From: Paecilomyces variotii
Taxonomy: Eukaryota
DNA: 32,603 bases
Assembly (NCBI GenBank): GCA_004022145.1
Contig: RCNU01000037.1
Reading direction: 5' to 3' (one strand)
Made by a program: the position numbers and the translations under genes. This document shows, one piece after another, positions 2,050 to 32,603 of the stretch (position 1 is the first letter of the stretch; each line of letters begins with the position of its first letter). Below the pieces are notes generated by a model. The model was not told the origin of the DNA and made no database searches. It worked only from the letters and a program-made list of their open reading frames with translations.

Positions 2050-4850
2050 AAGATAAAAAATTTAGAAATAATCTCTTTTTAGCCGGCTCGCGCTTTTATT
2101 CTTATATAGAATATAGTAAAATAAGTTTTTTTAGCCGCTTATTCTCGCAGCAATAATTATACTTATCTAGTATTATTAATAATAATATAAGTTTTACTAT
2201 AGAAATATTAACTATATTTTACTAACTTAAGAATAAGAAAATATCCTTTATTTAAAATGCGCTTAAACCGCTATTATAGCTAACTTATATTTATAACTAA
2301 TATATTCTCTAAATAAAAAAAGATACTTAAGTATTTAATAGCTAGTTTTAAATAACTCTCTTCTATAATACTATTATTAATATATTAGGGACTAATCTTA
2401 AATATTCTAGATAAAATAGTAAGCAATATAAATAATCTAAGTCTCTATAAGAGTACTATTAAGAAGTTACTATAATTTGCAGTAGTAAACTAATACTTCT
2501 ATATACTTTATACTATACTATAATTCTATATCTTATTACTTACTTAATAAGTACTATAATAATAACGCGATATTTTATTACTTAAGTATATAATAAGGTA
2601 TAATAAAAGAGGCCTACGCTTAATTAATTTTCCTTAAATACTTTTATTAAAAAAGTAAGTAATTTCTAATATTATCCTATAAAAGGCTTCCCTAGTATAG
2701 CTCTATTATACTAACTAGTATATTACTTATTATAGAGTTAAATTAAGCATTTAAATCTTACTCTCTCCTTTAGCAATAAGTATTTTTAAGAGGCTTTACT
2801 TTAATATATAATTACTTCTAATATATTATTTTAATATATAAAAATACTTAAGTTTATTAATCTTTTAAACCTTTATTATTTAAAATTACTAATACTTAGC
2901 TATAAAGCTCTTAAAGCTAGTATTAATCGCAAATATCTATAAGTTTAGGCAGAGATTACAGATAGTATATTCTTGCAATATTAAGTTTTTCTTATATTAA
3001 ATATATAGTCGAGTCTTAACTATTTATTATTTTTATTAATTATTATATATTATATTAATAATAAGTAGTAATACTATAAGATCTTATTTATCTTTTACCT
3101 ATTATTAAATTTATATATAGGGTAAAATTTATTATAAGTTATATATTCTATGCTAAAAGACTTTAATATAGATTTTAAGCTTTTTACTATAACTGCAGAT
3201 AATATATTTAATAATATGCGCATAGCTTTTTTCCTTAAAAAGGAACTATATAAATATAGAATTAAATAAGAGTATAAGGCTAAATCTATTAATTATCTTA
3301 TATATATAATTTAATTAGCTATTAATAAGCTCTTAAAGGTTTTAAGAATAGTTGCTAAGAATAAATTAGTTAATACTTACTTAAAAAAGTCCTAACTAAT
3401 AAAGATTACTAATAAAGTTAGTTTTAAAAATATATTTCGCAAGGTATAATCTAATATTTCTGCTATAGCCTATATTAATATTAATAAACTTAGGCGCTTA
3501 CTATTACTGTTAATTTATCTCTGCAATAATTTAAATAGTTTAAATATTATTAAAATTCTAATAAATAGAACTATTATAACTTAGAAATACTACGCAGCTA
3601 TATTTATATTAGTTTAATTTAAGATATTAAAACCCGCTAGGGTAATACTTATAATATGCTTAAATATATCTAGGAGATAAAGTATACTATCTTCCGCTAA
3701 TTAAGCATATTATATTAAAGCTTAAGAATAAGAAATAGTAATATATAGATATTTTACTAAATATTCTAAAACCTTTTTCTATAATTACTTAATATATTAA
3801 TATATTCTAGGCGCTAAGTATCTATAAGGTATTTTATTTATATAACTATTTCTTTAAATATCTTAAGATAGTAAAAAAGTAATAGAATACTCTTTATCGC
3901 AATAGGTATACTATAGCGCTTATTGCTGCTATTAATATAATAAAAGATAAATTATCTAATTATTATAGCTAGACAAAGAGTTAATATAGAAAGTTCTATG
4001 CTATTAGTATAATCTTTAATCTTATAAAGAAACTAACGTTTTATTAAGTAAGTATTATATTCCTAATACTATATATATTACTAATAACTTATATAGTTTA
4101 GTTAATAGAGGCCTAAATATAAGGATCTATATTATAAAGAGTTTCTTACTTATTATAATATATATTATAGGTATTTAAAGCCTATCTTTCTAAGTCTAGA
4201 ATCTATTAGTATATAGATAATATAGTAAAATAAGGTAGCTAATATATTATTCTTTATCGGTTAAGATATTCTTATATAATCTTAATCTTATAATAAGCTA
4301 AAGATATTAAAGGCTAAGTAATATTTATAAGATCTCTTATAATAATTTAATATAGATAACTTAGCCGCTAGAGATATTCTTAAAATATAGTTTTCTTTTA
4401 AATATAACTATCTAACTCTTATAAAAATAGCTTAAGATATTTTATTTATTCTAGTATTTAAAGTTAATATAGAGTATATCTTTAATACTTATTATAATAT
4501 CTGCTATTATCGGCGTAATTAACTCTATAATCCTATTATTAAAAAAGTTATAATTCTTAAATTCTAGAGCTTTAAGAAAGATCCTCTATCTACCCCTATT
4601 ACTCTTTATATACAGGGAGATATATAGCCTAATATTCTACTTAACGATAATTAGACAGTTATTAATAATGCTAGCGATACTAAGAATAATAAAAGATATC
4701 TTCTTCTTAATATACTTTCTAATAACTAAGATCTTACTATTATAATCCTAGAGAATTCTTATAATAGCGCGACAGATAATAAAGATAATAATCTTCCTTC
4801 TCCTAGAGTATTGCTTTAAGTATTTTAGGAAAAGCTTCCTTAGAATTTAT
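2050..4850 (+). pseudogene. hAT transposase (RIP-inactivated)
   Basis: De-RIP motifs in hAT order: DxWSS..H (~3000), SHTGxNL (~3110), TADNASNN (~3190), QDVKTRWGSTYDML (~3620) and the dimerisation domain MARDVLSIPASGVGVERIFNTCRDICHYRRNRL (~4428-4530). Ends approximate. Confidence 0.88.
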
Positions 4851-5017: not shown

Positions 5018-5181
5018 AGCTTATTAAGCTAAGCTTATAAGCTAAGCTAAGCTAAGACTCTTAACTTAACTTAAGGAGCTAAGCTAAAACTCTTAGCTTA
5101 ACTTAACGAGCTAAGCTAAGACTCTCGGCTTAACTTAACGAGTTAAGCTAAGATTTTTAGCTTAACTTAGCTTATCTCTTA
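5018..5181. repeat. Subterminal GAGCC/GGCTC-type repeat array and right end of hAT-1
   Basis: Tandem gctaa/cttaa units (RIP form of gccga/ctcgg) with a ~31-bp higher-order unit, e.g. gagctaagctaagactctcggcttaacttaa. Confidence 0.8.
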
Positions 5182-5182
5182 C

Positions 5183-5255
5183 TCTATTAAAATTAATAGT
5201 TATAAGAAAGTATAAAATATTATAGTAAATAGTAGAGCTAAAATTAATATAATAT
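5183..5255 (+). pseudogene. Gypsy aspartic protease, 5' fragment
   Basis: ata gta aat agt aga gct aaa att aat ata ata reads as (M)VDSGAEINMM after de-RIP; the frame continues at 14136. Confidence 0.8.
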
Positions 5256-5470
5256 TAGAGTAGTTATAGAAAACTAAAAAAACCGAATTAAACTAAACTA
5301 AACTGCCTATAATTTAGTTTAGTTTATAATTTTATAAACTGGAACAGTTTATAGACTTTATAAACCGAACTAATAATTTATAGTGCATTATATAATTTTT
5401 TTAGATTTAGTTTTTTTAGATTTTTTAATTTAATTTAGTTTTTTAGTTTTTTTTAGTTACTTTAAATTAA
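5256..5470. repeat. hAT-2 TIR and AACCG/CGGTT subterminal repeats
   Basis: aaccgaatta, aactaaactaaactgcc and tttagtttagttt (RIP forms of aaccgaaccg / ttcggttcgg). Confidence 0.75.
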
Positions 5471-5799
5471 TCTAAATTTTTATATAAATCTTATTAATCT
5501 TTAAGAATTATTTAGATTTTTATTTCTTTATAATATCTATTACTAAATATTAACTAAAAATTAATAAAATAATATTAGAATATAATATTAGAGTCTAACT
5601 TAAGTTAAATTCTTAACATTTATATTAGCCTTTAATATAGTTAATCTAGCATAAGTAATAATTAGAAAATTTAAGTCTATCTATAATTACTGCATTTCTC
5701 TAAGAAATTAGTAAGAATATATAAAAACTCTAAATATAGGCAATTTATCTAATTATTCTCTTTTATTATAAGTAGACTTAATAATAAGTTAATCTATTT

Positions 5800-8620
5800 A
5801 AATACTTAAAAAACCTTAACCCCTAAATTGCTCTATTTAATAATCTTTATTATCTATATTTATCTCTCCTTTTAATATATTATCTATATCCTTATTATTA
5901 CTAATTAAATTTAGTAATTTAATCTTCTCTCTTTTAGATTATTAATTATTAAGTATTATATTTATATTATTAGTTATTACCTTAAACTCTTACTAAATAG
6001 TGAAATTTTTAATATATATAAGAAATATTAAAGCATAGATTATATTAAGAAATAGTTAGCTATATTAGTAATAATAAATATCTCAGGTACTATTAAATAA
6101 TTATTCTATACTAATACTACTTAATAGGATTATAAAAAAATCTTAGGCTATTATTATAAGAATTAAGAATTAGTATTTATTAATTCTCTAATAATTAAAG
6201 ATATTATCTAATTCTAATAAACTTAATCTAACTTAAGTTAAAATAATACTATATAATTTAGGTATAATATTAAATAGAATATTACCTTTAATAAGATAAG
6301 TCTAAATTTCTTAATAAGTACTAGTAGTACTTAAAGGGAGATAATAATATTTAGATTATATAAGCGCATAATCTAAGATTAAGACTAATAAATAGATTCT
6401 TAATTATATCTTAATATTTAGATTTTAATTACTATAGTATTAAAATACCTTATAAAAAATCTTTTTATAAATATTATATTAGTTTTTTATTATATCTTAT
6501 TAGACCTAAGTTTTAAAATATTTAAATTTTATACTAGGGTAAAGGATTATTATAATTATATATATAAATCCTTAAGATTTATATATTTTAGTATAATAAG
6601 TTTATAACTTATTATAAGCTTTAAATAAAGTATCTTAGAGTTATATCTTCTATATAGCTCTTTTTAATTTTAAATGCTCTATATAGTTATTAAGATAATT
6701 AAAGATAGTATTATAGATTTTAAAAACCCTATAAACTAATAGACTATTTATCTTTAATATAGTAAGAATAAGATTATAGAATAGCCAGGTTAACTTAATA
6801 AAATATTTAACCTAACGCTATTTAATAGGGGATAATATTAAAAAATAAATATCTTCATTAGCCTATAATATAATAAATCGTCTAATTACTATATATAGTT
6901 TAAGGGCATATATAAATATAAGATATATTAAATTCTATTATATCTAGTAATTAAAAAGTAATAATTTTAGCTAACTAGTATTCGATTATTATAGTATTAA
7001 GAAATATTCCTAATACTAAGGGCTTATATTAATAAATCTAATAATCTTGCGAACCTATATAGAAATCTATTAGTATTAATCTAACTTAAGTTAGATAAAA
7101 AATACCTTTTCTAATAATATTAGAATACCCTAAGAATATAATAAGCCTCTATTCTTTTTTATATCCTAACTAATACTATTATTAATAAGAGTATTAATAT
7201 AAAATTTACCTAGTAAAGCATTAACTGCAAGTTATAAAATATATACTAAATATAGAATATAATAGCGATTTAAAATAAGTTAACTTAATATTATATCTTA
7301 GAAATCTTCTAATAATAAATCTGTTTTAAGCTTATTCCTTAAGCTTTTATCTAGCTCCGCTATTAAAATAATATTATTATTTATATTATCTATAATAATA
7401 GTAAGAATCTAATATTATAAATTATATTAATAAAGATTCTTTAACAGTATTTTAGCTAAGTTTTTCTTAGTATATAATCTATAAATAGGATTAAAGGCTA
7501 AGAATACTTCTTTATATACCTATTTTATATTAATGAAATACTTAATTATAATAAGAAAAAAATATTAACTTTAATTAGTTTAATAATCTAATATTAAAAA
7601 AATCTTTCTTTACTCTAGTAAATATAATAGCATTTTAATATAATTAATCTCCTTAAGTTTAAAAAGGCGTGCTTAAATCTAATATTAGTTAAATAACTCT
7701 AGATATAAATTACCAGTAGCTATATATAATATATAGTAGAACTAAATATATTTAACTATTTAAAATAATTAGCAATATCCTATAATAAAATACAGGATTT
7801 AATTATATAATATATCTAATATATATATTAAATTAAAAGTTTTCTAAAGAAAATATTAGTAATAAAATCTATATTAATTACTTAGTTCTTACCTTTACAA
7901 TTAATAAATTTTTAATTATTGCTATTTTTTTAAGTCTTATCTCTAGATTAATATATAGCCCTTTTTATATAAGCGGCTATTAAGCTAATATTATTTCCTC
8001 CTTTATAAAGATATTAAAGAAATATAGAGTAATATAAATATTATATATAAAGAATACTAGAAATATTATCTATAATTTCTTAATAATATTGCTATATATA
8101 TAATTAAGTCTTTATTTTTATCTATTAAAACTTAGACTATTATTTTATAAACTTTATTTTACTTTATTAAGATTTAAAAATCTAAACTTATTCTAGAAGA
8201 GCTAGATAGACAATAGCCTTTTCTTAATTATATCTTACTGTCTTAAGTTTAGTTAAGTTAAAAATATTAGCTTTAGATTAGGGCTTATATTATTTAATAA
8301 GATTATAATTAAAATTTATATCCTAGATATTAGTATTTAAAGATAAAGGAGTCTTATAAGTCTTTATAGGAATATAAATAATATAATTCTAAAACTATAA
8401 TAAAGGACTTAATAATCTTAATATATCTCTATTAAAATAAAATAAGAAGGAAAAGAAATTTAAAGATAATAATATCGGCAGCAGTATAATATTTATAGCA
8501 TTTTAACTTAAATTAAATTCCTGCTTAGATATATTTATATCTTAGATTATTATAGAGCTAGCCTAGATTATTAAGATATACTATTTTTTTCTTCTATTCT
8601 ATAGTCTCTATCTTTATAGT
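5800..8620 (-). pseudogene. hAT-2 transposase (intron-containing, RIP-inactivated)
   Basis: Minus-strand de-RIP motifs: ALDCWT (~7580), SHTGENLA (~7465), TTDNASNN (~7385), VRKIVRFINASPQ (~7035, after intron 7055-7105), WNSTYLM (~6920) and YW..N...FPILATMARDFFAIPSSGVGVERLFNSARDICHYRR (~6060-6200). N-terminus approximate. Confidence 0.9.
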
Positions 8621-9019
8621 TCTACTCTTTTATCTTTAATTATTATTCTAAAATAAAAATAAGAAGTAATAGCTATACTAACTTAAATTAAATCCTTAAA
8701 AACTAATTTCTATCCTATTAATAGAATTTACTCTAACTTAAGTTAGAGATAAAGCTTCTAAATAATATAAGTTTTTATTACTAGAGGAAAACTACTCTTA
8801 GATAATTTAATTTAAAAGTAGAGATTATATTATTAGTTTAAAAAAAAACCTAATTATTTTATTTTTAACTTAAGTTAGTTTCTTATATATTAAGCAAATA
8901 TTATTAAGATAGCTTACTTAGAGCTAAATTAAAAAACTTAAACTTAAACTAAAAACTTAGCTTTACTCTTATATTTATAATAATAGTATTATTATAATTA
9001 TTTAATAATATAATTAGTA

Positions 9020-12000
9020 AGAAAAATAATTTATCTTTATTATTATTATCTATATTATTCCTTTAAGGTATATTATTTACCCTATTAATCTCTATATCTT
9101 AATCTAGAATTTTAATTAAATCTTATTTTAACTTTAGTTAGAATAAATATACTAATTTATTTATCTATAAAATCCTTTAATACTTTTTATTTCTTCCTTA
9201 AGGAGTTAAAAATAATAGCTTAAAGCTATTTCTAATTCTCTAATTTATATTATTCCTTATTATTATTATAAGGGTATTTATTTATTAGCAGTTAGTTTAA
9301 TAAGATTAAAAGAGGTATATATAACTTTTTTTAAGCAGTATATTTATTCTTAATTTTAAGATTATAGTCTAGCGTAAAATACCGCAGATATTTATTTATA
9401 TTATTTATATCTAAAGCTTAATCTTACTTAATTAAAAGATTAGCAATCTCTCTTAGTGCCTATAAGTACTAATATTATTTCTCTTAAATTAGGTTAATTT
9501 CTAACTTAAATTAGATTAGTAGTATATATACCTTAGTCTTAATAAAATTCTTAGAATTCTTCTTATAATTATTAGTCTTAAAAAAGCTAAGCTTTATAAT
9601 ATAAACTATACTTCTCTTAATAAATTAGTATATCTATAAAGCCTTAGCAATATTAGATTAGGTCTTTAAATTATCCTTATATTAATTAACTTTTAAAATT
9701 CTTAGATTCTTTACTATATTATTATATTAGAATTAGGCTTATTATATAATACTGCTAAAGGCAGTAAAGATAAAAAATTATTTACCTTATATTATAATAG
9801 TTTTAACTTAAGTTAGAATAGTTTAAACTTATAATCTTACTCTTATTATTAAATTAACTTATAATATTCTTAAAATTAAGTAAAACTGCTTTAGAAATTA
9901 TATAAAAGATATAGGCCTAATAGTATTACTTAAAATAGGAAAGATATATATACTATTAGTTATAACTATCTTATTCCTTAATATCTTAAAAGTAGAGATT
10001 ACTAAGTAATTCTAGCAGCTAAAAGATATTAATATTAATTCTAATTATAGTTAAGTAAGGTTATTATATAATGCTTTAAATTTGCCTAAGTCTATAGAGA
10101 ATTTTTATAAAGCTTATTAATAAGTTTTTCTATAAAGTCCTTAGCAGTATATATATTATTAGACTTATAAAAGAGAGAATATTAAAATTTATTTATCTAC
10201 TAAAATTCTTAGAGATATTTAAAGGCTATAATAAGATACTGCTACTCTAGATTATACCAGAATATAATATATTTTAATATAGATTTTAATAAAAGACTAA
10301 TTTTATTATTAAGATTAATTTATAAACTCCTATAATAATTAGTTTATAATTAATTTTTATATTTAACTTAAGTTAAAACTTATTATAAGAGGAACTTAAG
10401 TTCCTTATTCTTTAAAATATTCTTCTATATTTATATATATACTTTATCTAATAGGGCTATAAGGAAAAACAGTTATTAAATAGGGTTCTTAAGAAATAGT
10501 ATAAGAATCTTTAAGCAAGATAATAACTATTTATTAAACTACCTGTAATCTAGAGATAATTTAAGTTTATTATTTTTATAATCTGCCTATAAAAAAAAGA
10601 ATAATATATATAAGGTATAATTACTTGCACTATAATAATACTTAGTAATTAATTTTTAATCTTCTGCTAATATTATTCTATTCTACTTATTTATAAAAAT
10701 TGTTTTAATAAAGCTAAAAAACTTCTTAAATTCTATAAATTAAAATTAGATTCTTAAATATACTTAATTTAGCTTTATATTTATAATTATCTCTCTTAAT
10801 ATATAATTCTAATAAGAGCAACTATAAGCTATCTATAAATACTCCTATAAATATTATAATTAAATATTATTATATAAAGAGGCTATAGCATAAGCTATAT
10901 AATTAAATAATATACTAATAATAGAGCGCGCCTAATTTTTAAACTCTTTATAGTTTTTTAGCAGTTCTTTATATTAATCTATAAATTTCTTCTCCTACTC
11001 CTTAATAAATAAGAGTATATATTCTCTATTAATATTAATATAAGTAATATCCTTATAATTAGATTATAATGCTGTAAGAACTTCTAATAATATTACCTTA
11101 TTATAGAGGTTAATAGCCTAAAGATATACCTATAGATTAATTAGCTAAATTCTAACTTAAGTTAAAATAGGGATATATATTAGCCTATAGTCTCTTAATT
11201 ATCTTTTTTTTATAATTAATAGCTTTAGTAGCAGCTACTTCTTTCTACTTAATTAGTAGCTCTAGAAGAGCTATATAATAATATTACCCGGCTTATAATA
11301 CTAGTAATATAAACTTTTCCGGCTACTTCTTTAAGTAGATAAAAAAGTTATTATCTTTATCTTACTACTGCCTTAAGAGACTATAAATATTACTAATATC
11401 TATTAGTTCTAATAGTTCTGTTATATATACCTATAATACTAGGTTAAAGTCCTTAATATTTAGAGTTACTTTTATTTATATATTAATATTAAATCTCTAT
11501 ATATTAGTGCAGAACTTATTCTTTAAGTTCTTAATATAATTAATATTAATATCTTAATTGCGTTCTATATCTTTCTAAGATATTTTAAGCTTTCTTATAT
11601 CTATATATAATATTCTTAAATATTTATTCTTAAGCTCTATATAGATTATATTATCTCTTATTATTAAGAAGACTCTAGCTTTAGCTATATAGGCCTTCGG
11701 CCTATATAGTATATTAATCTCAATAGGCTTAAAATTTAAATAGAGTTCTATAGAATTTCTATAATTATAAGCCTTAAATTTCTTTTATTAATACTTCTAG
11801 CTAGATTCTCTATACTAAAATCCTAGAGAGTTTGCCTTATTATCTAATAGATATTTTTATTATTTATACTATTTCTCTAATAGATAAAGTTATAGAGTCT
11901 TTAACTTAAGTTAGAATTTTAATTATAATAGGGTTAGTAACTTATAATAGTATATAATAATCTTCTCTTATATCCTTAAAAATAATCTAACTTAAGTTAG

Positions 12001-13440
12001 ATTATTATCTAGTCTATGCGCTATTTCTTACCTAGAGTAAGTTAGAATTTACTCTTTTTACTAAAGAGTATATTTAATAAAAGAAGTAAATACAATAAAA
12101 GAAAAAATAATATAATATATATACTCTTAATATAGACTATACCTAATTAAGAAATTATATATATATAGGTATATAATATTAGAGACTCCTTAAGCTCTCT
12201 TATTAATTATTCTATTATTACTTTAATTAACTATTACTAGTAAAATTACCGCTAATTAAATAAATAAGCCTTACTTACTTTTTAGAGACTAAACTTATAA
12301 ATTCTAACTTAAGTTAAATTATAAGTAGGTCTATTATATATTTAATTTATTATTATCTCTACTATTAGTAATATCTTATAATAACTTACTGCTTATATTT
12401 CTTTCTTAATAGCTTATAATAGTATCTTAAAGATACTTTAAATTCCTAGGTTTTAATTAAATATACTTAATTAAAAGATTAGTATACAATATTTATTATT
12501 TATCTTATTCCTCTATAGGCTAAGTTATATATAGGCAATAGTCAGTTTATTTAGTAATATAGCTAAAGTAGCGCTAAATACTTTAAGTATAACCTTCTAG
12601 TATATTTTAACTTAAGTTAAAATGCTCTTTTCTAGCTTAGATTATCTATTTAAACTACTTTCTATACTTAGAGCTACTATAATAATAAATAACTTATAAT
12701 TTCTCTTAACTATTGCTTTATAAAATCTCAATATTTCTCTTTTAAAACTACCTCATTTGATTTGCCTTTAGAAAAGAAAGATATTAACCCTAGGTTATAA
12801 TAATTACCGTTAAGATTAATTTAATTATTCCTAAGGATATCTTTACTAATCCTAAAGCTACTTTATCTGAAATTACTATATTTCTTATTTAGCTTAATAA
12901 GATTAAGGGATACCCTTATATTTATTCTTGCCTTCTTTCTTTTCTTAATATTACTTAAAAGATAAATTAGTAAACTTTATTACCTAATATTAATATGCGA
13001 GATATATATTTTTACTTATAGTCTACCGCAAAAAAGCACTAAATAACCTAGTTTACTATATTTAATATGCTAATAAAAATATAAGTAGCTAATTTAATTT
13101 AAGATAAATAATTCTAGTATATTTAAGGAATTGCTTTAATTACTTCCTTAAATAATAAGAGAAAATATCTTATAATTTAAGATTGTAATCTATAAGATCC
13201 TAGCTAAAAATAACTATATTAATTTCTTCTTCTAGCACAGAATTATTTCTTAAAATTAGTAAAAAAAAAGACCTTAGTTTTATTATTATAGTATTATATT
13301 AATAGAGCTAAATTAAGGTAAAATAAGTATCTGCAATTTACAATAGAATAGCTATATTAAATAGCTTAATTAGGGGATTATCTATTATAAGAGAATAATA
13401 TTTAACTTAAAAACTATATCTAGATAAAAAAGAAATAGCT
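9020..13440 (-). pseudogene. Large multi-intron accessory gene of hAT-2, unknown function
   Basis: Long minus-strand exon-like frames with only TAA/TAG stops (e.g. ~9190-9460, 10000-10325, 10620-11120, 11200-11400) separated by short GT..AG introns (e.g. ~9460-9531, donors at ~9840 and ~12031). Ends approximate; no domain recognised. Confidence 0.6.
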
Positions 13441-13899
13441 ATAAGAATAATATAATCTTAGTAGTTTAAACTTAAGTTAGAATTTTAGTAAGCTTTATAA
13501 GTATATAGAATTTATATATTTTCTGTAGAAGTTATAACTTACTAATTATATATAGATTTTATTATTAACTTATTAAAAGAATAATTTAGAAATTACTTTC
13601 TATTAAGAATAATAATAGTAAATAAAATCTATTCTTTAGTTTAATAACTTTAGCTTTTATAATAAATTATATATATTATTTAATAGTACTTTATTAGTAC
13701 TATAGTTTATAAATATATATATATATTTCTATAATAATTATTTTAAAGTCTATATTAATATTTAATAATATCTTAAAAGACTATCTTTATACTTTTAGAT
13801 TTAATATAATAATATTATATTTAAACTATTTTTTAGCTATAGATTTAAAAGGATATAAATTTAATAATAATATAAAATAATATAGAATATTAATACCTT

Positions 13900-14127
13900 T
13901 AATACTATAAACTGTATAAACTATTTAAACTGAACCGTTTAAGAAAAATCTAACTTAAGTTAGTTTAGCGCCTAGTCTTAGCGAATATTTTAGTTTTTTT
14001 TAGTTTTAAACTAAACTGCCAGAATATAGTTCGGTTTAAGTATAGTCTTTTTACCCTAAACTAAAACCCGCTATAGGCAGTTTAACTTTCCCTTAAATTA
14101 AACCGAATTACCTATATAACTAGTCTA
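13900..14127. repeat. hAT-2 opposite-end subterminal repeats and TIR
   Basis: aactgaaccgttt, ttcggttt and aaccgaatta, ending ...tataactagtcta. Confidence 0.75.
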
Positions 14128-14135
14128 TATAATAT

Positions 14136-17100
14136 ATAAAGATATAGTAAATTACTATAAACTTATTATAAGCTAAAAATTTAAAAATAATATAATATTA
14201 GTAAATAGCAGGCAGATCTCTTTTATAAGTCTCTATAAAGAGATATTTATATAAATAAAATCTTTTTATTATAAAGTCTCTTTTTTTATAATAAATAATA
14301 AGATTAACTATAATTATATTCTAGGATAGCCTTTTAAGTATTAAATATATTTATAGCATATTATTCTATTAAATAAAATAATAAATAGTATAATTTACTC
14401 TATAGACTAAAAGAATTAAGCTATTATTTAAGTATTCTTAATAAATAATTTATAAAATAAATTAAGAAAAAAAGTTTTATAAGACCTTTTATTAAAGGTA
14501 TAAGAGTTATTAAATTAAAATTAAGAAAAAATAATAAATATTAGACTAAGAAAAGAAAAGATTTATAAGAAGTATACTTAATAAATAATATTAACTTTAG
14601 ATTAAGTAAAAGAATTAAAGGAAAAAATATAAGAGTATTTAAACCTACTAAATTATAAGAAAGAAAAAGAAATTTATAGGAATATAAGTTATTTAAAAGA
14701 TATAATCTTTTTATTATAAAAGTAAATTATATTATTAATATTTAATATAAGAGAAAGTATAAAAAAGTTTATTTAATAAATATAGTAAATAAACCTATAG
14801 TAGTATTAGAAAGATTATTAAGATAAAAAGAGATTATTTAAGAGTATTATTACTTAAACCCTTAAAGAAATATAAAAGAAATATAGGGAGAATTTACTGA
14901 ATATATTTAGCTAAAGATATTAAATATAATAAAAAAAATAAAGCTAATCTTAAAATGCTTAAAAAATCTTATTATAGGGGAAGCCTTATAGCTTAAAGAG
15001 AAAGAATTATTAATAGAAATATTTTTTACTAGAAAAGCTACCCTTATATAGACTTTTAAGGAGATTAAATAAATATACCTAGAAATAGTATCTTTAGTTA
15101 TTATCTAGACTATATAATATAAGCTATAGTAAGTAAAGAACTTTTTAATATTAAAGGTATTTTATAGTATAATATAAATAATAGTAAAGAAGAGAATAAA
15201 AATTAATATCTTTAAATAAAGTTAGAGGCCTTATAAGAACTTATAGTTTCTTATAAAAAAGAAAAATAGTAAATATTAATTAATTAATATTATAATAAAG
15301 GTTAACTAGATAATAATAAAAGATATTAATTTACTCTCTTTAGCTAATAAATTCTTAGAGAAGTTTAATAGAATATTAATATCTATATTAATAGATTTAT
15401 TCTCTAGATATAATTAGTTAAAATTAATAGAAGAATTATATAATTTAATAATTTTCTATATATTTAAAATTAGTTTAATTTGCTAAGCTAGACTACTATA
15501 AGAATAAACTAATATAGTATTAGAATTTATATATAGACTTATAAGGGCGCTTATTAATAATATCCTTAATATCTATAATATATTTTTAAATAATACTCTA
15601 ATATAAGGTTTTAAGACTAATTATAGAGAAGAAAAAGTACTGTTTAAAATTAAAAGGTTTATATTTAAATATATCTAAAATATTAATAAAGTACTATATA
15701 GTTTTAAACTTACTAGTTTAACTATTATTAGAGAGAAGTTATAATTTATAGTCTTAAGGATTAAAGTAATAAGATATATATATAATATAAAAAAGAAGTA
15801 CTTAAAATCTATAAAAGTAATTAAGATTTTAAAATAATTACTCTGTTAAAACTTATAAGAAGTAAGAGAATTTCTAGGGGTTATAGTCTACTATTAGATA
15901 TAGATTAAAGGATATATTATTAAAGCTAAGCTAATATATTTAATATTAAAGAAAGGATAAGATTTTTTTTAAGGACTAAAATAGTAAGACTTAATAAATA
16001 TTTTAAAAATAGCCTTAATAATAGCTCTAGTACTTAAGTTAATTAATTATAAAAAAGGAGGAATAATTATTATTAATATAGATACTAATAATAATAAATA
16101 AGAGGTATAACTTATTTAAGAAGAAAAAAAATCTAATAAAAGATACTTAGCTAAATATAAAAATAAAGTATAAATATAAGCAGAGAGATAATATAATAGA
16201 GAAAAGCTAAAATATAAAATAATATTAAAGGCTTTTTATAAGTTTTAAATATATTTATATAATATATACTTTTAGCTAAAAATAAATATAAAAACTTTAA
16301 TTATATAATTAAATAAAATAGCTATTAATCTTTTAAGATTAATAATTATTTATTAAATTACTTAAATCTAGCTATTTAACTTTAATATTATCTATATAGT
16401 AAGAAGAAAGAACTTAGTTATAGATAAGTTATCTTAAAAACTAATAATAAAGTAAAACTTAGAGAAAGCTAAAGATAATAATATAGAGAAATTCTTAAAC
16501 CTATAGTTTTATACAGTCTATTATATTAATATATAAGAAATAAAATTAAATAATATCTCTTAATTAATACCTATACTATATTAATTAAATAAATCTTTAC
16601 TAATTATAGAATAGCTATAAACTATAATAAAACTAGATAATATAGACTAAGAATAATATATTAAGTTTAAGAAAGAGGCTATAAAGTATATAGTATAAGA
16701 TAGTATTCTTTTCTAGAAAGTATAGTAAAATTAGCCTTATTAAATAATTATTAATAATAAAGAAAAGTAAAAAAAGATTCTTATTATTTTTTATAAAGAA
16801 TATAGATATTAAAAATATAAAGTAAAATATAGGAAAATAGCTAATTAATATTAATAAAAAGGCCTATATAAATATATTATTAAATAGGTAAAGATATATA
16901 ATAAATACTAAAAAGCTAATAAAGAATATATAGAAAAAGCTTTATAATTAATATTTATTCTATTAGGAAAATTAAAGCTATATTTAAATATCTATAAGAT
17001 TATACTACTTAGTAAGAGAAAGACTTATATTATTATACTTTAAGATAACTTTAGCTAAGTTAAATATAGAGCGCTTAGTAGCTTTATTTTAAGAGCTATT

Positions 17101-23280: not shown

Positions 23281-26200
23281 ATATCTCCCGTTAATAATTC
23301 TAATAACTAAAAAGAGAGACTAGTTCTTACTCTTTCTAAAGAAAATTATAAAAAATAGTTTATTTATATAAAAAAATAGCTTATTAGTAAAGACTATTAA
23401 GATATTATTAAATGCTAATAATAAGATAGTAACTTATTATAAAAGAAAAATAATATAATAGTATAATACTAGATTATAAAATGCCTATTTAAGGATAATT
23501 AAGATAAATATATTAAAGATACTACTGTTAAAGTACTATAGAATTATCTTAAGAGATAATTTAAGAAGACTTAGCCTACTTAATAATACTAACTTATTTA
23601 ATTATTTATTAATTTTAAAATAATATCTAGATAGATTATTACTAATATATAGAAGTATTTATAATAAATAAAAAAGAAAGTAATAGCTTATAATAGTACT
23701 ATATTTTCCTTAGCTAAACCTAAAGCTAGAATCTAATACTTACTCTTTAATTTACCTAGTAAATATACTATTACTAGAATAGTAATTAATACTTATAAAT
23801 ATCTAGGAGTAAAAGATATTTTAGCTATTTTTAAGGAGGCGAAAGCTAAATTTTAAGCTTCTCTATTAAGCGCATTCTATGCGAAAAAGTAAGAATTTAT
23901 TAAATACTATATATATAAGAAAAACTATTTTATTAAAGACTGCCTATAATTACCTATAGCTTAATAAGCTACTTAGAATACTTAAAGATAGAGAAAGAAA
24001 TCTTTAAAGAGCTTATCTCTACCTATAGACTAGAAACTAGTAAAGATAATAGCTAAGCTATTCTAGGAAATCCGATCCTTAAAGGAGAAAAGATCTTAGA
24101 GAAAAAAGTAAAAGGCTTATAAGGCAGAGAAAATCTCTAATACTAAGTTATTATATTTAAAGCCTAATTTAATTATATTAAATAATTAAGTCTCTTATAA
24201 GATTACTTACTTATTAAAGAATATAATTAATAAGAATTTACTCTAATAGTATATTAATAGCAGTGCTAATTTATATATAATTAATAAGACTTACTATTTT
24301 AAAGAACTATTAGTAAAGATTAAAAAGAGGTATATTTAAATAGGAGGAGAAATCTTATATATAGAGTATATAGATACTACTGCGCTAAATAGACAGAATA
24401 GAAAAGTTATATATTTAGAGAATATATTACTTATTTTAAAGCTTAGAGTAAATCTATTATTAATTAAGAAATTTTACTAGTAATTTAACTTATATAATTA
24501 CCTTAATACTAGTTTAATATCTATATTAAATAGATCTAATAATATTATAATTTAAGATATATTTAAATATAGAGTTTATATTATAAAGAAAATCTTCCTA
24601 GACTTAATACTAAAGCTATATACCGCTATATATAGCTAGCTTATATATAAGAAAGATTAAGCCTATTGCGCTATAGTTACTTCTTAAGATAATTTTAAAG
24701 AAGCTTTCTCTAAGATTAATAATAATAATTATAGATTAAGATACTTTAATAAACTCCTCTATAAGAGAAATATAAGGGATTAAATTTAAGAGAAGTATTA
24801 GCTTTAATATAGGCGAATTAATTACCTTAAACTTAAAAAGATTAGAAGCCTGCATAAAATAATAATACTAGAGAAATTAATTAACGTTATTAGTAACTAT
24901 TAATATATAATCTATACTATAGCTAATATTAAGAATAAGAGAGATACAATAAGTAAATAGAAAGAAAGCATTCTAGAACTAATCTATATAAATATATGCA
25001 GTTAGATACTAGAGTTAAGAGATAAATATATTTACTTCTTAACTATTATAGATAACTACTTATAGAAAATATAGATATTTTTAATAAGAGCTAAATCTAA
25101 TACTAGTCTTATCTTAAATAAATAGAAAAGAGAGATTAAAACTATTATTAATTTTAAAATACTTAGTATTTAATTAGATAATATATTAGAACTTAAGAAT
25201 ATTTTTAAAATATAGAGAAAGGATTTTAGTATTTACTATAAATCGACAGTTCTATATATATTAACCCAGAATAAAGCGGTTAAGAGAGTATATTAGACTA
25301 TTAAGAGAGGAACCTTGTAAAGAATAAGGGTTCCTAGAAGTTGCTAGCAAATTACTCTACTAGCAATTATAGCGAGAGAAGTAGCAGCTTCGCGTATTTA
25401 GCTCGGAGAAGGGTCTATCGGCGAGATAAAGGGTTAACTATTGTAATAAAGGGTCTAACTAGCGTAGAGAAGGGTTTACGCTAGAGGATTCTAGTAGTAA
25501 AGAGTCTATATAAGTAAGGAAATAGTAGAGTATATATTATATTAAAACGAATTGCTGGCCTCTAGTAAGATAGTAATCTAAAGCCTATTTATATTCTAAA
25601 CCTTAAGTACTTCTTAGCTTTATCTTATATAAATCCTAAAAGTAAGAAGAGCGAGGTTTAATTAATTACCTCAGTATTATATTCAGATTTAGGGCTTTAC
25701 TATAATTCTATAAGCTTATATTTTAGCGAGAAGCTAGGGGTATAATAAACCTATACTATACTTAAAGATATTAATTTTCTAATTAAGCTATAGGTAAAAG
25801 CTACTTAGACTAATATATAGATTAAGAATAAAGTATTAAATAGACTAATAGTTAATAGAATATAAGTAACTCCTAAGAAGGTATTTACTAGAGTAAAACT
25901 ATTTATTAATTACCTAAGAGTATAAGGATACTAGGTAGTATTATATATAAACCCCGATTTACTACTGCTAGAAATATAGAGAGATAAGTTAATAAACTGC
26001 AGATACTTATACGTATTTATTAAATATATTAAAGGCACAGATAAATAGTAGAAAGTTTAAATACCTAATATAAGAAAAGTTATTAAGACTTATTAAGCTA
26101 AATTCTTCGAGAATAAATAAGGAGAAAATATTAATCTCTATATCCTATAAAGGACTATACTAAATATAGCTTTAATAAGGAACTTAAAGGGGCGACTAGC

Positions 26201-28340
26201 TATATAAACTAATGCGTTATTAGCTTAATAATCTAATTAGCTAAGGTTTTATAAGTTTAAACTTATAAGACTACCTAATAAATTAGAACTACAGAATATT
26301 AATATTAATAACTAGGTACTAAGTAATAGAAGATAGATATCTTATACGCTTATATCTTCTAGACTTTCTTAAGACTAGGAGGAAGAGGTTATAGAAGGCT
26401 TTCCTAAGAGTACTAATAACTAAATATTAAAGAATTAGAAGGCGAAGGCTATAGAAAGCTTCTTTAAGATAATTTTAAGGAATAATTATAAGAATATACC
26501 TATCTTAGACTATGCGCAAGAGACTATACTATATATACAGATTTAGATATTATCTTATATTAAGATCCCTGCGATAATAAAGTAAAAGAGAGAGATATAT
26601 AAGCTTATAGAGAACGAACAGAATATAAAGCTCTATAAAGCAATACTTGCTCTAAACCTTATTACTCTAGGAATTATCTTAAATAAAGAGGAGTATATAG
26701 ATTATATATTAAAAGCAGCTCTCGCTGCTAAAGAATATATTCTAATCTCTAACTTTTATACGGCCGCAGTTAATAATCTTATATAAAGTAAATTATAGAA
26801 AGAGGCTTTTAAAGCTAAGATAAATATACTATAAGTAAATAAAACTTTTAAAGTAATTATTCTATTAAAGGAAGCTAATATTATAATTAGCAGATAAGTA
26901 CTAGCTATAAAGTATAATCTAGATAATTTTCTATAAAAGCTAAAGGCCTATCTTATTACTTATAAATTTACCTAGAAGTATAAAATTAACTTTAAATATA
27001 CTTTTACTTTAACCCTGCGCTATAATACGCTATAGGTTTTCTTAGCTATAATAGCTATAGAAGACTATAAGTGCTATATAGTAAATATTAATAATGCCTT
27101 TATTAAGTTAATATTAAAGGAGAAGATTTATATAATAGCTTTACTTAAAATAAATATTTTACTAGGAATAATACTTAAAGTCTTAAAATCTCTATATAGT
27201 TTAAAGTAAGTAGCATAAGATTAAAACTACTCTTATATTAAAATACTGTAGAGAATAAGATTTATTTAAATAGATATAGACCTATGCTTACTATAATACC
27301 TAGAGAAAGAGATTTTAATCTTAGTATATATTAATAATATCTTAATCGGCTTAAAGTAAATAAAGTATATTAACTAGTTTAAATAAGAGTTTAGAATAGT
27401 ATATAAGATTAAGGACTTAGAAGAAGTAGATAAAATACTTAGTATTTAGATTATTTGCAATAAAGCGGAAAGAATATTAATTATAAGTTAATCTTACTAT
27501 ACTTAGAAAATCTTATCGAGATATAGAATAAATAAGGAGAAAGCTTACCCCGTTAGTATTCCGCTAAATAAGTATAATTATTTAAAATTAACTAGTCTAT
27601 AAGATAAAAGGGCTAACTAAAGAGAATATTAAAAGATTATTAAAGTACTTATTTACTTAGCGATTTTAATAAGACTAGATATTATATTTGCAGTAAGATA
27701 ATTAAGTTAATACTTATTTAATCTATTTAAAAGCTATTTTAAGCTATTAAAATCCTTAATAAGATACCTATAGTTAACTATATATTTAAGCCTCTAGTTC
27801 TATAAGAACTAAGATTAAAAACTTATAAGGTATTTTAATTTAAATTACGCGATAAATAAGATAGACTAAATATTAATTCTAAGAAATATTTTTACTATAG
27901 TAAGCTATTTAATTAATTAATTAAGTTAGAAATAGAAGTCTATTATAACTTTAATAATAGAGACTAAGTATATAGCTATATATTAAGCAATAAAGTAATT
28001 ATAATAGCTAGTATTACTTTTACGCGATATAGATTATAGTAAATATATTAGTTTAAACTAATATAAGCTAATTATAAAGGAAGAACTATTTTTTATAATA
28101 AGCTCTTTAATAAAACTCTTTAAGAATAATTAAGTATCGCTATTTTTAATTAGAGATACTTATACTTATAATAAATTAAACTATATTAATATTATATATT
28201 ACTATATATGTAATCTATACTAAAGAAATTAAATTAATATAGAATATATTAGGACTAAGAATATAATAGCTAATAGATTTATTAAACCGCTCTTAAAAAT
28301 AGGCTTCGCTAAGTTTATTAAGTAACTAAGACTTATTAAG
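23281..28340 (+). pseudogene. Copia gag-pol polyprotein (RIP-inactivated, split by solo LTR)
   Basis: De-RIP motifs: gag N-terminus LSKENHExWF (~23335), CCHC knuckle (23905-23943), WYIDSGAxSHM (~24250), LWHRRxGH (~24805), PYTSxQNGAVER (~25250), KARLVARGFTQ (~26945), LYGLKQ (~27195), LVYVDDI (27321), SDSDYA (~27835), STTEAEY (~27955), ADGFTKPL (~28270). Confidence 0.95.
25316..25747. mobile_element. Solo LTR (432 bp) inserted in the Copia integrase
   Basis: Starts TGTAA and ends ..AATA (RIP of AACA). Exact 5-bp TSD AACCT at 25311-25315 and 25748-25752. The integrase frame (..ERGT|xAMLKD) rejoins on removal. Confidence 0.88.
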
Positions 28341-29540: not shown

Positions 29541-29780
29541 TATAATAGCTTATTTTAATTTAATTTAATTTAATAAAAATTCTATAGCTAGTTTTAATAT
29601 TAATTACTTTATTTTATTTATTTTAATTTAATTCTTAAGTTTATACCTTAATAGCTTATTTATAATAGCTTATTTTAATTTAAATTAATTAAATTAAAGT
29701 TTTATAGCTAGTTTTAATATTAACTATTTTATTCTATTTATAGTAATCAAATTTCTAGGCTTATATTTTAACACTATATA
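29541..29780 (+). repeat. Two tandem ~120-bp units
   Basis: tataatagcttattttaatttaa starts at both 29541 and 29661, followed in each by tatagctagttttaatattaa. Confidence 0.85.
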
Positions 29781-30149
29781 GCTCTAACCTATTAGGGGGA
29801 ACGATTTAGTATGGGAAAAACGCACCTTGCCATTTTTCCCATACAAAGTGGGCCACTTTTTTTCGCCCACTGAGCATGCCACGAGGGACTTAGTCGTGAG
29901 CGCCGGTCGGGTGGGCCACCAACTGGCGAGCCGCCGCCCACCCGCCCGCAGCCCCCCCCCGGCCTGGATCCGGGCCCGCCGCAGGTTCAGAGCACGCGCT
30001 GTGCCTTATATTGGCCGGGGGAGGGGGTGGGAAGCGAGGAGGGAGGGGAATAGGCGGTGCACCGGGGATGGGGAAGAGAGATATATATTGGTGTACGGAC
30101 CGGTGGTGTGATATATATATATATGTATGGGGTGTATGTACACATGCAC

Positions 30150-30540
30150 CCCCCTTTCACTGCACCTACCCGGAACGGCCCCCCTCCGGGTAAGGCCTTT
30201 AACTGCACTTACCCGGAACGACCCCCCTTCCGGGTAAGACCTTTAACGGTACTTAACGGGAATGACCCCCCCCCGGGGGCGGCACGCCGACCGGTCACGT
30301 GACCTCGCCGGCCACGCCTGCACCGACTCCCTCCCGGTAAGACCTTTACCCGGAGCGACCCCCCGGGGCACCCCCCCCCCCCCCCCCCCCCCCCCTTTAA
30401 CGGTACTTACCCGGAACGACCCCCTTCCGGGTAAGACCTTTAACTGCAACTCCCCCTCCCCGGTAAGACCTTTACCCGGAGTGCCCCCCCCCCGGGGCTA
30501 GGGTTCCGGGGTCTCGCGCCCGGGAGCCCTTACCCGGCGG
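30150..30540. repeat. IGS subrepeat array A
   Basis: Recurrent modules CCCGGTAAGACCTTTA, TTTAACGGTACTTACCCGG and TTTAACTGCAC, with C-runs (C25 at 30371-30395). Confidence 0.9.
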
Positions 30541-31685
30541 GACGCCTGCGCCCCGGCCCCTCTGCCTGCCTGCGCCTCCGGCCTCCCCGCGAACGGTGCC
30601 GCCCAAGGCCGATTCCTCCCGTCCCATTGTCAACTGGCGGAGGCCCACTCCCCGCCAGTCTCTCTCTCCCCCCTCCCCGCGGCCAGGACCCCCAGCCGGC
30701 TGCCCCGGGGGCCCTCCCGCCCCGGGGGCTACTGCACGCAGCTCGCCCCCGGCCTCCCCGTACGGCCCAGTTACCGGCCGCCGGGGCACCTCCTTTCCTC
30801 CCTCTACGCTGCCGGGCTGCGATCGGGACCGACTGCGCTCCAGGGCCGGTCCACTGCCCGCCTGCCCTGAGACCGCCGGCTCCCTGCCCCCGGCCGTGGC
30901 GCCCGGCCACAGTTCCTTCCTCATAGACTCTCCGACCTCAATTGAGCTTGGATCCTGCGTGCAACGGTTCCCCTGTCCCAAAGTCGCTGCCGGGGAACGA
31001 TTTTGTATGGGAAAAACGCACCACATGGGCCATTTCCCCCCATACAAAGTGGGCCACTTTGTCCGCGCGGCCAAGGCCCTGGACCGAGTGGGCCAGCAAC
31101 TGGCCGATCCGGGGTCCCTGCAACGATGGAGTGTCCGGGGGTAGTGCCGGTAAGGACCACGCCTGCACCGATCCCCTCCCGGTAAGACCTTTACCGGGAA
31201 CGACCCCCCCGGGCACCCCCCCGGGGGTACCCCCTTTAACGGTACTTACCCGGAGCGACCCTCCCGGGGCACCCCCCTTTAACTGCACCGACCCCCTTCC
31301 GGGTAAGGCCTTTAACTGCACTTACCCGGAACGCCCCCCTCCCGGTAAAGGTCACGTGACCGTGCCGGCCTCTCCCTCCCGGTAAGACCTTTACCGGGAA
31401 CGACCCCCCCCGGGCACCCCCCCCTTTAACGGTACTTACCCGGAGCGACCCCCCCGGGGCACCCCCCTTTAACGGTACTTACCCGGAACGCCCCCCCCGG
31501 GCACCCCCCCTTTAACTGCACCGACCCCCTCCCGGTAGGACCTTTAGCTGCACTTACCCGGAACGCCCCCCTCCCGGTAAAGGTCACGTGACCGTGCCGG
31601 CCTCGCTGCACCGACCCTCTCCCGGTAAGACCTTTACCCGGAGCGACCCCCCCGGGGGCACCCCCCTTTAACGGTGCTTACCCGG
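30186..31685. promoter_or_regulatory. Cluster of Reb1-consensus sites (TTACCCGG / CCGGGTAA)
   Basis: 16 exact matches counted by eye: 30186, 30209, 30230, 30346, 30407, 30427, 30472, 30530, 31246, 31299, 31322, 31436, 31479, 31554, 31634, 31678. Confidence 0.55.
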
Positions 31686-31770
31686 AGCGACCCCCTTCCG
31701 GTAAAGATCACGTGACCGTGCCGGCCTCGCCGCAGCGACTCCCTCCCGGTAAGACCTTTAACGGCACCGC
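31145..31770. repeat. IGS subrepeat array B
   Basis: Same modules as array A, plus GGTCACGTGACCGTGCCGGCCTC recurring at 31350 and 31582 and as a variant at ~31706. Confidence 0.9.
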
Positions 31771-32144
31771 AGTCATGCCCGGGGTGAACACGACTGCCAC
31801 GTGACCTCCCGCGTACGGCCAGGCACGGGGGCAGAATCCAGCACGGTCCGCCGCCGGCCCCCCGGGGGCCTCACCTTTAACGGCACTGGCCCCCCTCCCG
31901 GCAAGACCACGCCTGCAGTGACCCCCCCGGGGGTCGGATCTTTACCGGCACTGCCCCCCGCCCCTCCCCCCCAGCGCTCACGACCGCGCCGGCCCCTCCA
32001 AGTCGCCGCGCCCGTCGCAGAAACACCAACTGGTTTCGTCCGGCGCACACGGTTCGCGACGCCGCTGCCGGCCCCGCGAACCTCCCGCTGGACCCCCCTC
32101 CAAACGCCCGGCGCTGCCGAACCCTTTGGTGGGGAGGTGTTACA

Positions 32145-32541
32145 ACAAATCGAGCCAAGGATCGGGCTGACGCTCAGCGACTCGTAACAACTAGGCTACT
32201 TGACCGCTTACACGACCCGCTTGGTCACTTCAGTCGTCTGCAGAGGATCTATCCCCGCGCGAGGTGACATTGCAATCCGCCAGCCAGCCCCCGGGGGTTT
32301 CTCCCCGGGGGCCGTCGCCAGCCTGCTGAGGTGCATGGCCCGAAGGCCTATTCGTATCCAACTACGACGTGCGGGGCGAAATCGCCGCGTTCCGGCACGG
32401 ATTCTGACTTAGAGGCGTTCAGCCATAATCCGGCAGATGGTAGCGTCGCGGCACTGCCTGGTCAGACAGCCGCAAAAACCAATTATCTGAATCAACGGTT
32501 CCTCTCGTACTAAATTGAATTACCGTTGCGGCGACCTTCAT

Positions 32542-32596
<55 letters not shown>

Positions 32597-32603
32597 ATTA
32601 GTG
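32145..32603 (-). rRNA. 28S (LSU) rRNA, 3' end (partial)
   Basis: Colinear with the fungal 25S/28S 3' end: sarcin-ricin loop AGTACGAGAGGAAC (reverse complement of ~32498-32511), GATTCTGACTTAGAGGCGTTCAG, and terminal ...GATTTGT at 32145. Confidence 0.98.

Follow-up and report, generated by a model that had tools for sequence, protein, structure and literature searches.

In a 32,603-nt stretch of Paecilomyces variotii DNA (contig RCNU01000037.1 of assembly GCA_004022145.1, hereafter the window), an 8,872-bp hAT transposon degraded by repeat-induced point mutation (RIP) carries 19 copies of a short palindrome, with none in the 20.9 kb of adjoining RIP-mutated DNA. Sixteen copies are equivalent once RIP-type changes are allowed for, and three are variants (at 9127, 13466 and 10390). 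The actual repeated unit is a 16-bp palindrome, TCTAACTTAAGTTAGA, with the invariant core AACTTAAGTT. The reading that we favour, with a confidence that falls somewhat short of even, is that these palindromes are putative sites bound by a dimeric protein of the element itself, most likely its BED-finger transposase; this proposal is built on the sequence and its computational analysis.

The palindrome was first remarked on in an earlier note, made from the letters of the window, which listed 13 exact copies of the 12-mer TAACTTAAGTTA and several near-copies, all inside the hAT element. The 13 exact copies are all present at the listed positions, within 5596–13962, whereas 100 dinucleotide-preserving shuffles averaged 0.06 and did not exceed 1 (0/100 reaching 13), and the rest of the window, 20.9 kb of it equally AT-rich, holds none. 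Its near-copies at 8504, 8679, 9129, 9502 and 13468/9 are there as well, and the one at 10391 reads GGAACTTAAGTTCC. When up to one mismatch is allowed, TAACTTAAGTTA has 20 matches, 18 of them within 5256–14127 and two beyond (5062 and 29239), both of which are TAACTTAACTTA in tandem-type sequence. The match at 5062 sits in a block of AGCTAAGCTAA / CTTAACTTAAC repeats at 5037–5175, directly left of the hAT, with 67-nt inverted arms that are 78% complementary. The inner CTTAAG is frequent window-wide (24 inside the element, 38 outside); the 10-mer core occurs 15 times inside and never outside, TAACTTAARTTA, which allows RIP-type changes at C and G only, 16 times and never, and the 16-mer TYTAAYTTAARTTARA 13 times and never. 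For 13 versus 0 copies in 8,872 versus 20,908 AT-rich bases, a Fisher test gives p = 1.4e-7.

Left of the 12-mer stands C or T and right of it G or A, and beyond these comes T...A. At arm position 7 the C–G pair is found in 9 of 19 copies and the remaining 10 are off by one C>T or G>A change, while position 8 is paired in 16 of 19. Because pairing fades beyond position 8 (35 of 76 positions, against a 33% background at 1,064 other TTAA centres), the unit is taken to end there. The longer perfect palindromes pointed out in the earlier note are real, with arms of 9 (18 bp, 8731–8748), 13 (26 bp, 11981–12006) and 10 (20 bp, 12604–12623), but on average pairing outside the 8-bp arms is only weakly above background. 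The 16-mer is perfect at 7080, 8732 and 11986, and C>T/G>A is the sole kind of change in the 13 copies that fit its consensus. The copy at 10390, AGGAACTTAAGTTCCT, has three bases altered on both arms and retains a perfect palindrome.

The copies are spread along the element with a mean spacing of 464 bp (coefficient of variation 0.76) and are not concentrated near its ends: only copies 1 and 19 fall within 340 bp of an end, at 338 and 164 bp, and the other 17 are interior. Their flanks are unrelated, sharing only a weak A at position −2 (26 of 36 half-flanks), and no co-occurring motif or shared k-mer was found within ±60 nt. Nor are there target duplications for unit sizes of 12–20 bp, with direct repeats of at least 3 nt seen around 28–39% of copies and 22–24% of random positions. 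With unrelated flanks and no target duplication, it is the 16-mer itself that is kept. Lone half-sites are not enriched, with 4 in the 8.9-kb element and 18 in the 20.9 kb outside. The palindromes are neither whole-intron copies nor insertions resembling miniature inverted-repeat transposable elements, nor are they degenerate tandem repeats. Derivation of the arms from the terminal inverted repeats of the element was also considered, and reading the two gave no convincing match.

The host is a hAT element, as had been proposed: it has an 8-bp target-site duplication, terminal inverted repeats, dense subterminal AAACYG arrays and transposase homology. The duplicated TATAATAT is AT-only and hence weaker alone than it would be in normal DNA, and we infer that the TAGAG of the terminal repeat derives from CAGAG by RIP. 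AAAC[CT][GA] falls to 0–4 per 250-bp bin in the interior, the distribution expected of hAT subterminal repeats, and the palindrome is distinct from these arrays, again as the earlier note held. The mark of RIP is heavy, with CA+TG totalling 108 against 1,931 TA in 8,872 bp.

RIP has erased profile signal, which explains why a Pfam search of the six frames of 5201–14202, with X at stops, returned zero families; neither stop-codon density nor base periodicity could tell the element's coding DNA from its non-coding DNA. A phmmer search with the − strand frame of 5801–9400 returned 234 matches at E ≤ 1e-3, the long ones being hAT transposases, and the relatives P0014, P0034 and P0109 carry PF05699 at 53–59 bits. 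The matched open reading frame (ORF) fragments P0007, P0008 and P0012 were compared with the window codon by codon: among 609 aligned residues, 308 are identical, 300 differ by C>T/G>A only and 1 is incompatible, whereas eight control alignments to other relatives were 46–65% RIP-compatible. With 608 of 609 residues compatible, the three are ORF fragments of an un-mutated copy of this element. Three contigs from run assemblies, up to 8,358 bp long, carry P0008. By tblastn, P0008 is placed at 7732–7094, P0007 at 6907–6236 and P0012 at 6151–5720 and 5699–5616. A C-terminal dimerisation domain is provided by P0012 (172/172 aligned residues RIP-compatible), which matches the hAT dimerisation domain PF05699 at 27.2 bits versus a cut-off of 21.4; as for the RNase-H-like DDE core, PF14372 on P0007 reached 22.4 bits, under its cut-off of 27. 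An indel of ~20 nt relative to P0012, at 5700–5719, shifts the frame in the last transposase exon and is one of very few non-RIP differences. A CxxH-like block, YLVYILXLAVNAL, lies near 7252, and at the N-terminal side a RIP-aware alignment of 8005–8190 to residues 1–61 of P0013 scored 88, versus ~40 for four shuffles.

These fragments also date the palindrome. P0008 runs from its exon into intron A (...EKVFSI) and ends at the window's TAA that forms the first three bases of the 12-mer in copy 3, and P0007 runs into intron B (...SIILT) and ends at the window's central TAA in copy 2. Since the progenitor ORFs stop inside copies 3 and 2, the un-mutated element has stop codons there, and by this comparison the palindrome is native to this autonomous hAT and predates RIP. 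About 19 palindromes would have been present in the un-mutated progenitor, with 3 of the 19 positions anchored by progenitor homology. A pre-RIP form resembling CYAACTCGAGTTRG, suggested in the earlier note, fails here: a TCGA centre (ACT CGA) or CAAC arms (ATC CAA) would leave the progenitor ORFs unstopped where they in fact end at in-frame TAA codons of the motif. An ancestor with TGAC arms is formally possible, but CA, TG or CG is kept at any of the three TA positions in none of the 16 RIP-equivalent copies.

The same ORF ends refute the idea that the palindromes arose as a by-product of RIP or of AT-rich composition, to which we now give almost no credence. Its attraction was that the inner CTTAAG is common in RIP-mutated DNA (62 in the window) and that the motif is RIP-proof: it contains no CpA or TpG, so CpA-directed RIP spares the core, and this accounts for its survival in ruined DNA. 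RIP resistance nevertheless leaves the copy number of the palindrome unexplained. A similar density in unrelated RIP-saturated DNA, which the earlier note had named as a refutation of its reading, was not found in the 20.9 kb of equally mutated DNA outside the element, and shuffling does not come near the observed count either.

The 16-mer contains one stop codon per frame in three frames and, being palindromic, in all six, a property shared by 0.5% of all 16-bp palindromes when weighted uniformly and 2.5% when weighted by the composition of the element. A palindrome with a stop codon in every frame is tolerable only outside the exons of a working gene, and confinement to introns and spacers would follow whatever the origin of the motif. 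Wherever the position of a copy can be judged, it is non-coding: introns, DNA past the stop codon, gaps between coding-like blocks, and flanking DNA. In the transposase gene, two of three introns hold a palindrome, a third palindrome lies 4 nt after the stop codon, and verified exons have none. The homology-defined GT...AG introns hold copies 2 and 3 only, one palindrome per intron; the probable intron at 7844–7892 has no intact copy, only GAACTAAGTAAT. Introns 7055–7105 and ~6214–6285 had been drawn exactly in the earlier note, each with its palindrome; its other proposals, an intron at ~9460–9531 and splice donors at positions 9840 and 12031, found no confirmation. Across the element, a − strand [AG]GTA lies 8–80 nt upstream of 16 of the 19 palindromes versus 12.7 expected, which is not significant (p = 0.089).

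A pattern of identical copies amid unrelated flanks, with no copy in verified exons (as expected of any six-frame stop), is also what a functionless unit would leave behind. Here a 16–20 bp palindrome would have spread either as a minute mobile unit or through repair or conversion (templated end-joining, short-patch gene conversion), with exon copies purged by selection. There is a precedent in Hypoxylaceae, where proliferating introns share a central 10-nt palindrome that is thought to serve as repair microhomology (PMC8469720). We regard neutral spread of this kind as unlikely in our element. No target duplications exist at any assumed unit size from 12 to 20 bp, and no copy is found in 20.9 kb of other repeats, which include a related hAT. 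Distant relatives' ORF fragments break at both verified intron sites, so introns A and B are old, older than the motif; neither a family of introns at new positions nor whole-intron likeness, as in introner-like elements or sister introns, was found. That the 13 consensus-matching copies differ only by C>T/G>A implies either recent spread or selection, and we know of no nuclear eukaryotic mechanism for inserting a fixed 16-mer.

The DNA upstream of the transposase exons is more difficult to read, with no transposase homology between 7.8 and 14.1 kb (10 matches, all at E 0.02–0.9). We scored it using a codon log-likelihood model trained on six verified coding segments of the window, which chose the true frame in five of six leave-one-out tests. 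Three − strand segments reached 24.8 (11967–11140), 21.9 (11243–10074) and 18.3 (9723–9124); 40 simulations peaked at 20.0, with 14.9 as their 95th percentile, and + strand segments scored at most 7.5. In the intervals between palindromes from 8866 to 11902, one − strand frame is prominent in five of six (f2, f0, f0, unclear, f2, f0). A second same-strand gene, lying upstream of the transposase and having its coding blocks split by palindromes, is suggested by these results and would agree with the accessory gene proposed in the earlier note; an intronic placement of copies 8–13 draws on the same statistics of codon use. From 11988 to 14127 the model found no prominent frame, which leaves ~2 kb with five palindromes (11986–13964) without a coding signal. 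A word-based protein search of 11161–11850 and PDB sequence searches returned no homologue of the upstream gene, but these are weak negatives because only 0–10 five-letter words per exon survive RIP; as a positive control, the word-based search recovered P0008. A word resembling the hAT dimerisation domain near 10727 was discarded, as its RIP-aware alignment scores against five relatives' domains (22–37) lie within those of shuffles (21–51). On the − strand at 12020–12050, a half-site standing alone, TCTAACTT, precedes ...CTCTAG|GTAAGA, in which an acceptor-like AG touches a donor-like GTAAGA, 30 nt upstream of copy 15; this arrangement could represent two adjoining introns or a nested one.

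An upstream gene with no assigned family, together with identical short palindromes that have a symmetric TTAA centre, raises the thought of a site-specific recombinase or nuclease encoded by that gene and acting on the palindromes, with inversion or deletion between copies. We consider this very improbable: no such domain was found in any frame, in a search weakened by heavy mutation, and no rearranged copies were seen.

A more substantial alternative acts on RNA. CTAAC, the consensus fungal branch-point word, stands on both arms of the palindrome, so that in pre-mRNA a hairpin of 6–7 bp could hold a branch-point-like UCUAAC against its complement and serve as a branch-point decoy or splicing brake, while stops in all frames would end intron-retaining or read-through transcripts, either as a fail-safe or to make a truncated regulator. 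The placement described above (two of three transposase introns, and 4 nt past the stop codon) and the rarity of six-frame stops speak for such a signal, as do the frame switches of the upstream gene's coding-like blocks across palindromes. Predicted folds also agree, at −5.4 kcal/mol (z = −3.9) for the 20-nt hairpin and −9.1 kcal/mol (z = −5.7) for the 26-nt form. Whole introns, however, are not unusually structured (z = −1.55 and −0.37), and in intron A another branch site, TACTAAT (interpreted as TACTAAC altered by RIP), is better placed, at 15 nt from the 3′ end of the intron. The probable intron at 7844–7892 does without an intact copy, five copies lie where the codon model saw no coding signal, and in-frame stops are already present in any intron. 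On balance we think an RNA-level role improbable, on a par with neutral spread.

We return to the protein-binding reading. Here the palindromes would act as DNA, each of them being a symmetric site to which an element-encoded protein binds as a dimer or oligomer. The likeliest binder would be the BED-finger transposase, dimerising through its hAT C-terminal domain, with the upstream gene product as the alternative, and an array along an unusually long element might load or bridge transposase oligomers, or else titrate and auto-repress the protein. Three observations speak for it: only whole palindromes are repeated, the copy at 10390 is still symmetric after changes in its arms, and the 16-mer is kept amid unrelated flanks. 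The window transposase also appears, from its homologies, to have both an N-terminal zinc-finger-like exon and a hAT dimerisation domain, and the palindrome core consists of two inverted AAGT words within AT-rich DNA.

Several points weigh against this reading. The binding repeats of hAT elements are normally subterminal, and dense AAACYG arrays already occupy both ends here (13 motifs in the first 250 bp, 12 in the last), while no palindrome comes closer to a tip than 160 bp. With the Hermes element, a distant insect hAT, just the 4 bp of AAGT are shared. A pure protein-binding site would leave the six-frame stops and the CTAAC arms unexplained, and both fit an RNA-level role better. To these are added the probable intron lacking the motif and a progenitor comparison that covers 3 of the 19 positions. 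A fuller version of the protein-binding reading, that of an autonomous two-gene hAT with an element-wide array of ~19 identical 16-bp palindromic operators in every tolerant gap, read by its own dimeric BED-finger transposase or accessory protein so that the element is coated, bridged or auto-repressed throughout, is offered as a speculative possibility, more doubtful than protein binding itself. Eukaryotic cut-and-paste transposons are believed to carry their cis-acting sites at the ends, and to our knowledge a self-addressing operator array of this kind is undescribed among them.

Known systems provide partial parallels. In the Hermes hAT, the BED domain of the transposase binds AAG(T/C) beside AT-rich DNA, and where two sites form a quasi-palindrome, two BED domains bind them cooperatively (PMC10368747). 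Our palindromes resemble the Hermes subterminal repeats in belonging to the hAT superfamily and in being short, AT-rich, AAGT-core sites in many copies (17 and 14 in the two Hermes ends), but the Hermes sites are at the tips, mostly single and oriented, whereas here whole 16-bp palindromes, candidate sites known from sequence, extend over 8.9 kb with none less than 160 bp from a tip and the ends are taken by an AAACYG array (PMC10368747). The domesticated hAT protein DREF/ZBED1, with a BED finger and hATC, binds the palindromic DRE, TATCGATA (PMC7471704). The likeness lies in a palindromic site whose reader carries a BED finger and self-associates by way of its hAT C-terminal domain; the difference is that DREF is a host transcription factor acting at an 8-bp promoter site of another sequence, not a transposon's own (PMC7471704).

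The nearest fungal parallel is provided by the symmetrical sister introns and stwintrons of Hypoxylaceae, in which a short perfect palindrome (WTTCTAGAAA, 10 nt) is kept at the centre of many spliceosomal introns; it is described as dispensable for splicing and has no role assigned in that account (PMC8469720). Those introns are alike over their full length (45–55-nt inverted repeats) and occupy new positions in host genes, unlike our element, where likeness is confined to the 16-mer, both verified introns occupy old positions common to the family, and some copies lie outside introns (PMC8469720). The introner-like elements of Dothideomycetes are likewise multi-copy fungal intron sequences with predicted secondary structure, but near-identical over their full length and found genome-wide in host genes, whereas the flanks here are unrelated (PMC3609843, PMC4457414). 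With regard to gene content, the TET/JBP-carrying hAT7 transposons of rust fungi have similarly grown by a second gene, which lies upstream of the transposase and is read in the same direction; they differ in their 7-bp target duplications and their Basidiomycota hosts, and the text available reports no palindrome array and denies palindromes at gene borders, while the upstream gene here has no assigned family (PMC12730594). A literature text search for the core AACTTAAGTT gave no transposon or fungal-intron paper, as judged by titles and abstracts among the matches listed.

Beyond the window, the 16-mer occurs as 11 single matches in viral contigs and at no fewer than 122 loci in metagenome contigs, with a maximum of two copies per locus among the matches listed, and none of these loci (at least 133 in all) showed hAT homology. 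The two-copy loci stem from an unrelated metagenome repeat family of ~150 nt with the 16-mer at its centre (L016, L031, L042, L055, L063 and L077); in L016, 152-nt inverted copies (1754–1905 and 9978–10129) flank a 2,402-aa bacterial-type kinase/AAA/GAF/PAS/histidine-kinase gene. No DNA of the element's relatives was found in viral contigs or prokaryote genomes.

Table 1. Positions in the window of the palindrome copies, the hAT element that holds them and its gene features
Feature	Position	Strand	Details
Palindrome copy 1	5594–5609		TCTAACTTAAGTTAAA; begins 4 nt past the transposase stop codon
Palindrome copy 2	6227–6242		within transposase intron B
Palindrome copy 3	7080–7095		perfect 16-mer; within transposase intron A
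Palindrome copy 4	8502–8517		RIP-type variant TTTAACTTAAATTAAA
Palindrome copy 5	8677–8692		ACTAACTTAAATTAAA
Palindrome copy 6	8732–8747		perfect 16-mer; 18-bp palindrome 8731–8748
Palindrome copy 7	8864–8879		
Palindrome copy 8	9127–9142		variant, centre TTTA
Palindrome copy 9	9500–9515		RIP-type variant
Palindrome copy 10	9802–9817		
Palindrome copy 11	10362–10377		
Palindrome copy 12	10390–10405		AGGAACTTAAGTTCCT; shares 10-bp core, outer arms differ on both sides, still a perfect 16-bp palindrome
Palindrome copy 13	11151–11166		
Palindrome copy 14	11900–11915		
Palindrome copy 15	11986–12001		perfect 16-mer; 26-bp palindrome 11981–12006
Palindrome copy 16	12303–12318		
Palindrome copy 17	12606–12621		20-bp palindrome 12604–12623
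Palindrome copy 18	13466–13481		variant TTAAACTTAAGTTAGA
Palindrome copy 19	13949–13964		164 bp in from right end
RIP-mutated hAT element, 8,872 bp	5256–14127	genes on −	terminal inverted repeats, target-site duplication, subterminal arrays, transposase homology
Left 8-bp target-site duplication	5248–5255		TATAATAT; identical to 14128–14135
Right 8-bp target-site duplication	14128–14135		TATAATAT
Left terminal inverted repeat	5256–5269	+	TAGAGTAGTTATAG; 12/14 bases match reverse complement of 14114–14127
Right terminal inverted repeat	14114–14127	−	reverse complement TAGACTAGTTATAT
Left subterminal AAAC[CT][GA] array	5271–5450		13 motifs in first 250 bp
Right subterminal AAAC[CT][GA] array	13909–14105		12 motifs in last 250 bp
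Last transposase exon, hAT dimerisation domain	5613–6213	−	stop TAA 5615–5613
Transposase intron B, 72 nt	6214–6285	−	GTAATA...TATTAG, phase 1; relatives' ORFs likewise break after ...YLxEG|
Transposase exon	6286–7054	−	P0007, tblastn 6907–6236, 223/224 residues RIP-compatible
Transposase intron A, 51 nt	7055–7105	−	GTATTT...ATATAG, phase 0; relatives' ORFs likewise break after ...LEK|V
Transposase exon (extends upstream of 7732)	7106–7732	−	P0008, tblastn 7732–7094, 55% identical, 213/213 residues RIP-compatible
Probable transposase intron, 49 nt	7844–7892	−	AAG|GTAAGA...CTTTAG|AAA, joins f2 to f1, phase 0; from sequence and frames
Approximate N-terminal transposase exon	8005–8190	−	CxxC...H zinc-finger-like region; alignment to P0013
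Candidate second (accessory) gene	8900–11900	−	coding-like single-frame blocks between successive palindromes; codon log-likelihood scan

The element lies in a block of RIP-type DNA, about 18–20% G+C, that reaches up to ~29.8 kb in the window. To its left, at ~2750–4705 (+), is another hAT transposase gene, likewise RIP-mutated and of this superfamily (tblastn, many relatives), which contains no palindrome copies and no other enriched motif. Long low-stop frames at 14.4–20.5 kb have no Pfam match, and a RIP-mutated Copia-type reverse transcriptase lies at 25338–28322 (+; PF07727, 58.9 bits). At 29780–32144 a spacer of 68% G+C is packed with short repeats (GGTAAGACCTTTA..., CACGTGAC) and includes a run of ~25 C near 30370–30395, and the 3′ end of a eukaryotic large-subunit (LSU) rRNA gene (343 bits) closes the window at 32145–32603 (−). 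From the spacer and this gene, the RIP-mutated block adjoins the rDNA array. Two metatranscriptome runs (X19 and X20) were listed with 0.28 and 0.17 of the element's sampled words, and parts of the mutated copy, or of a near-identical one, may be present in these RNA libraries.

A palindrome kept through introns, 3′ flank and intergenic DNA, and older than the mutations that killed its host, points to selection beyond the known end sequences of the transposon. If the copies form a protein-binding array, they would reveal how a long transposon arranges its own transposase or brings about its own silencing; if they are an RNA signal, they would represent a new intron-borne control element. Un-mutated ORFs of the element are present in public assemblies, which makes the case directly testable, and the ORF fragments of a living progenitor allow base-level annotation of even heavily RIP-mutated repeats.

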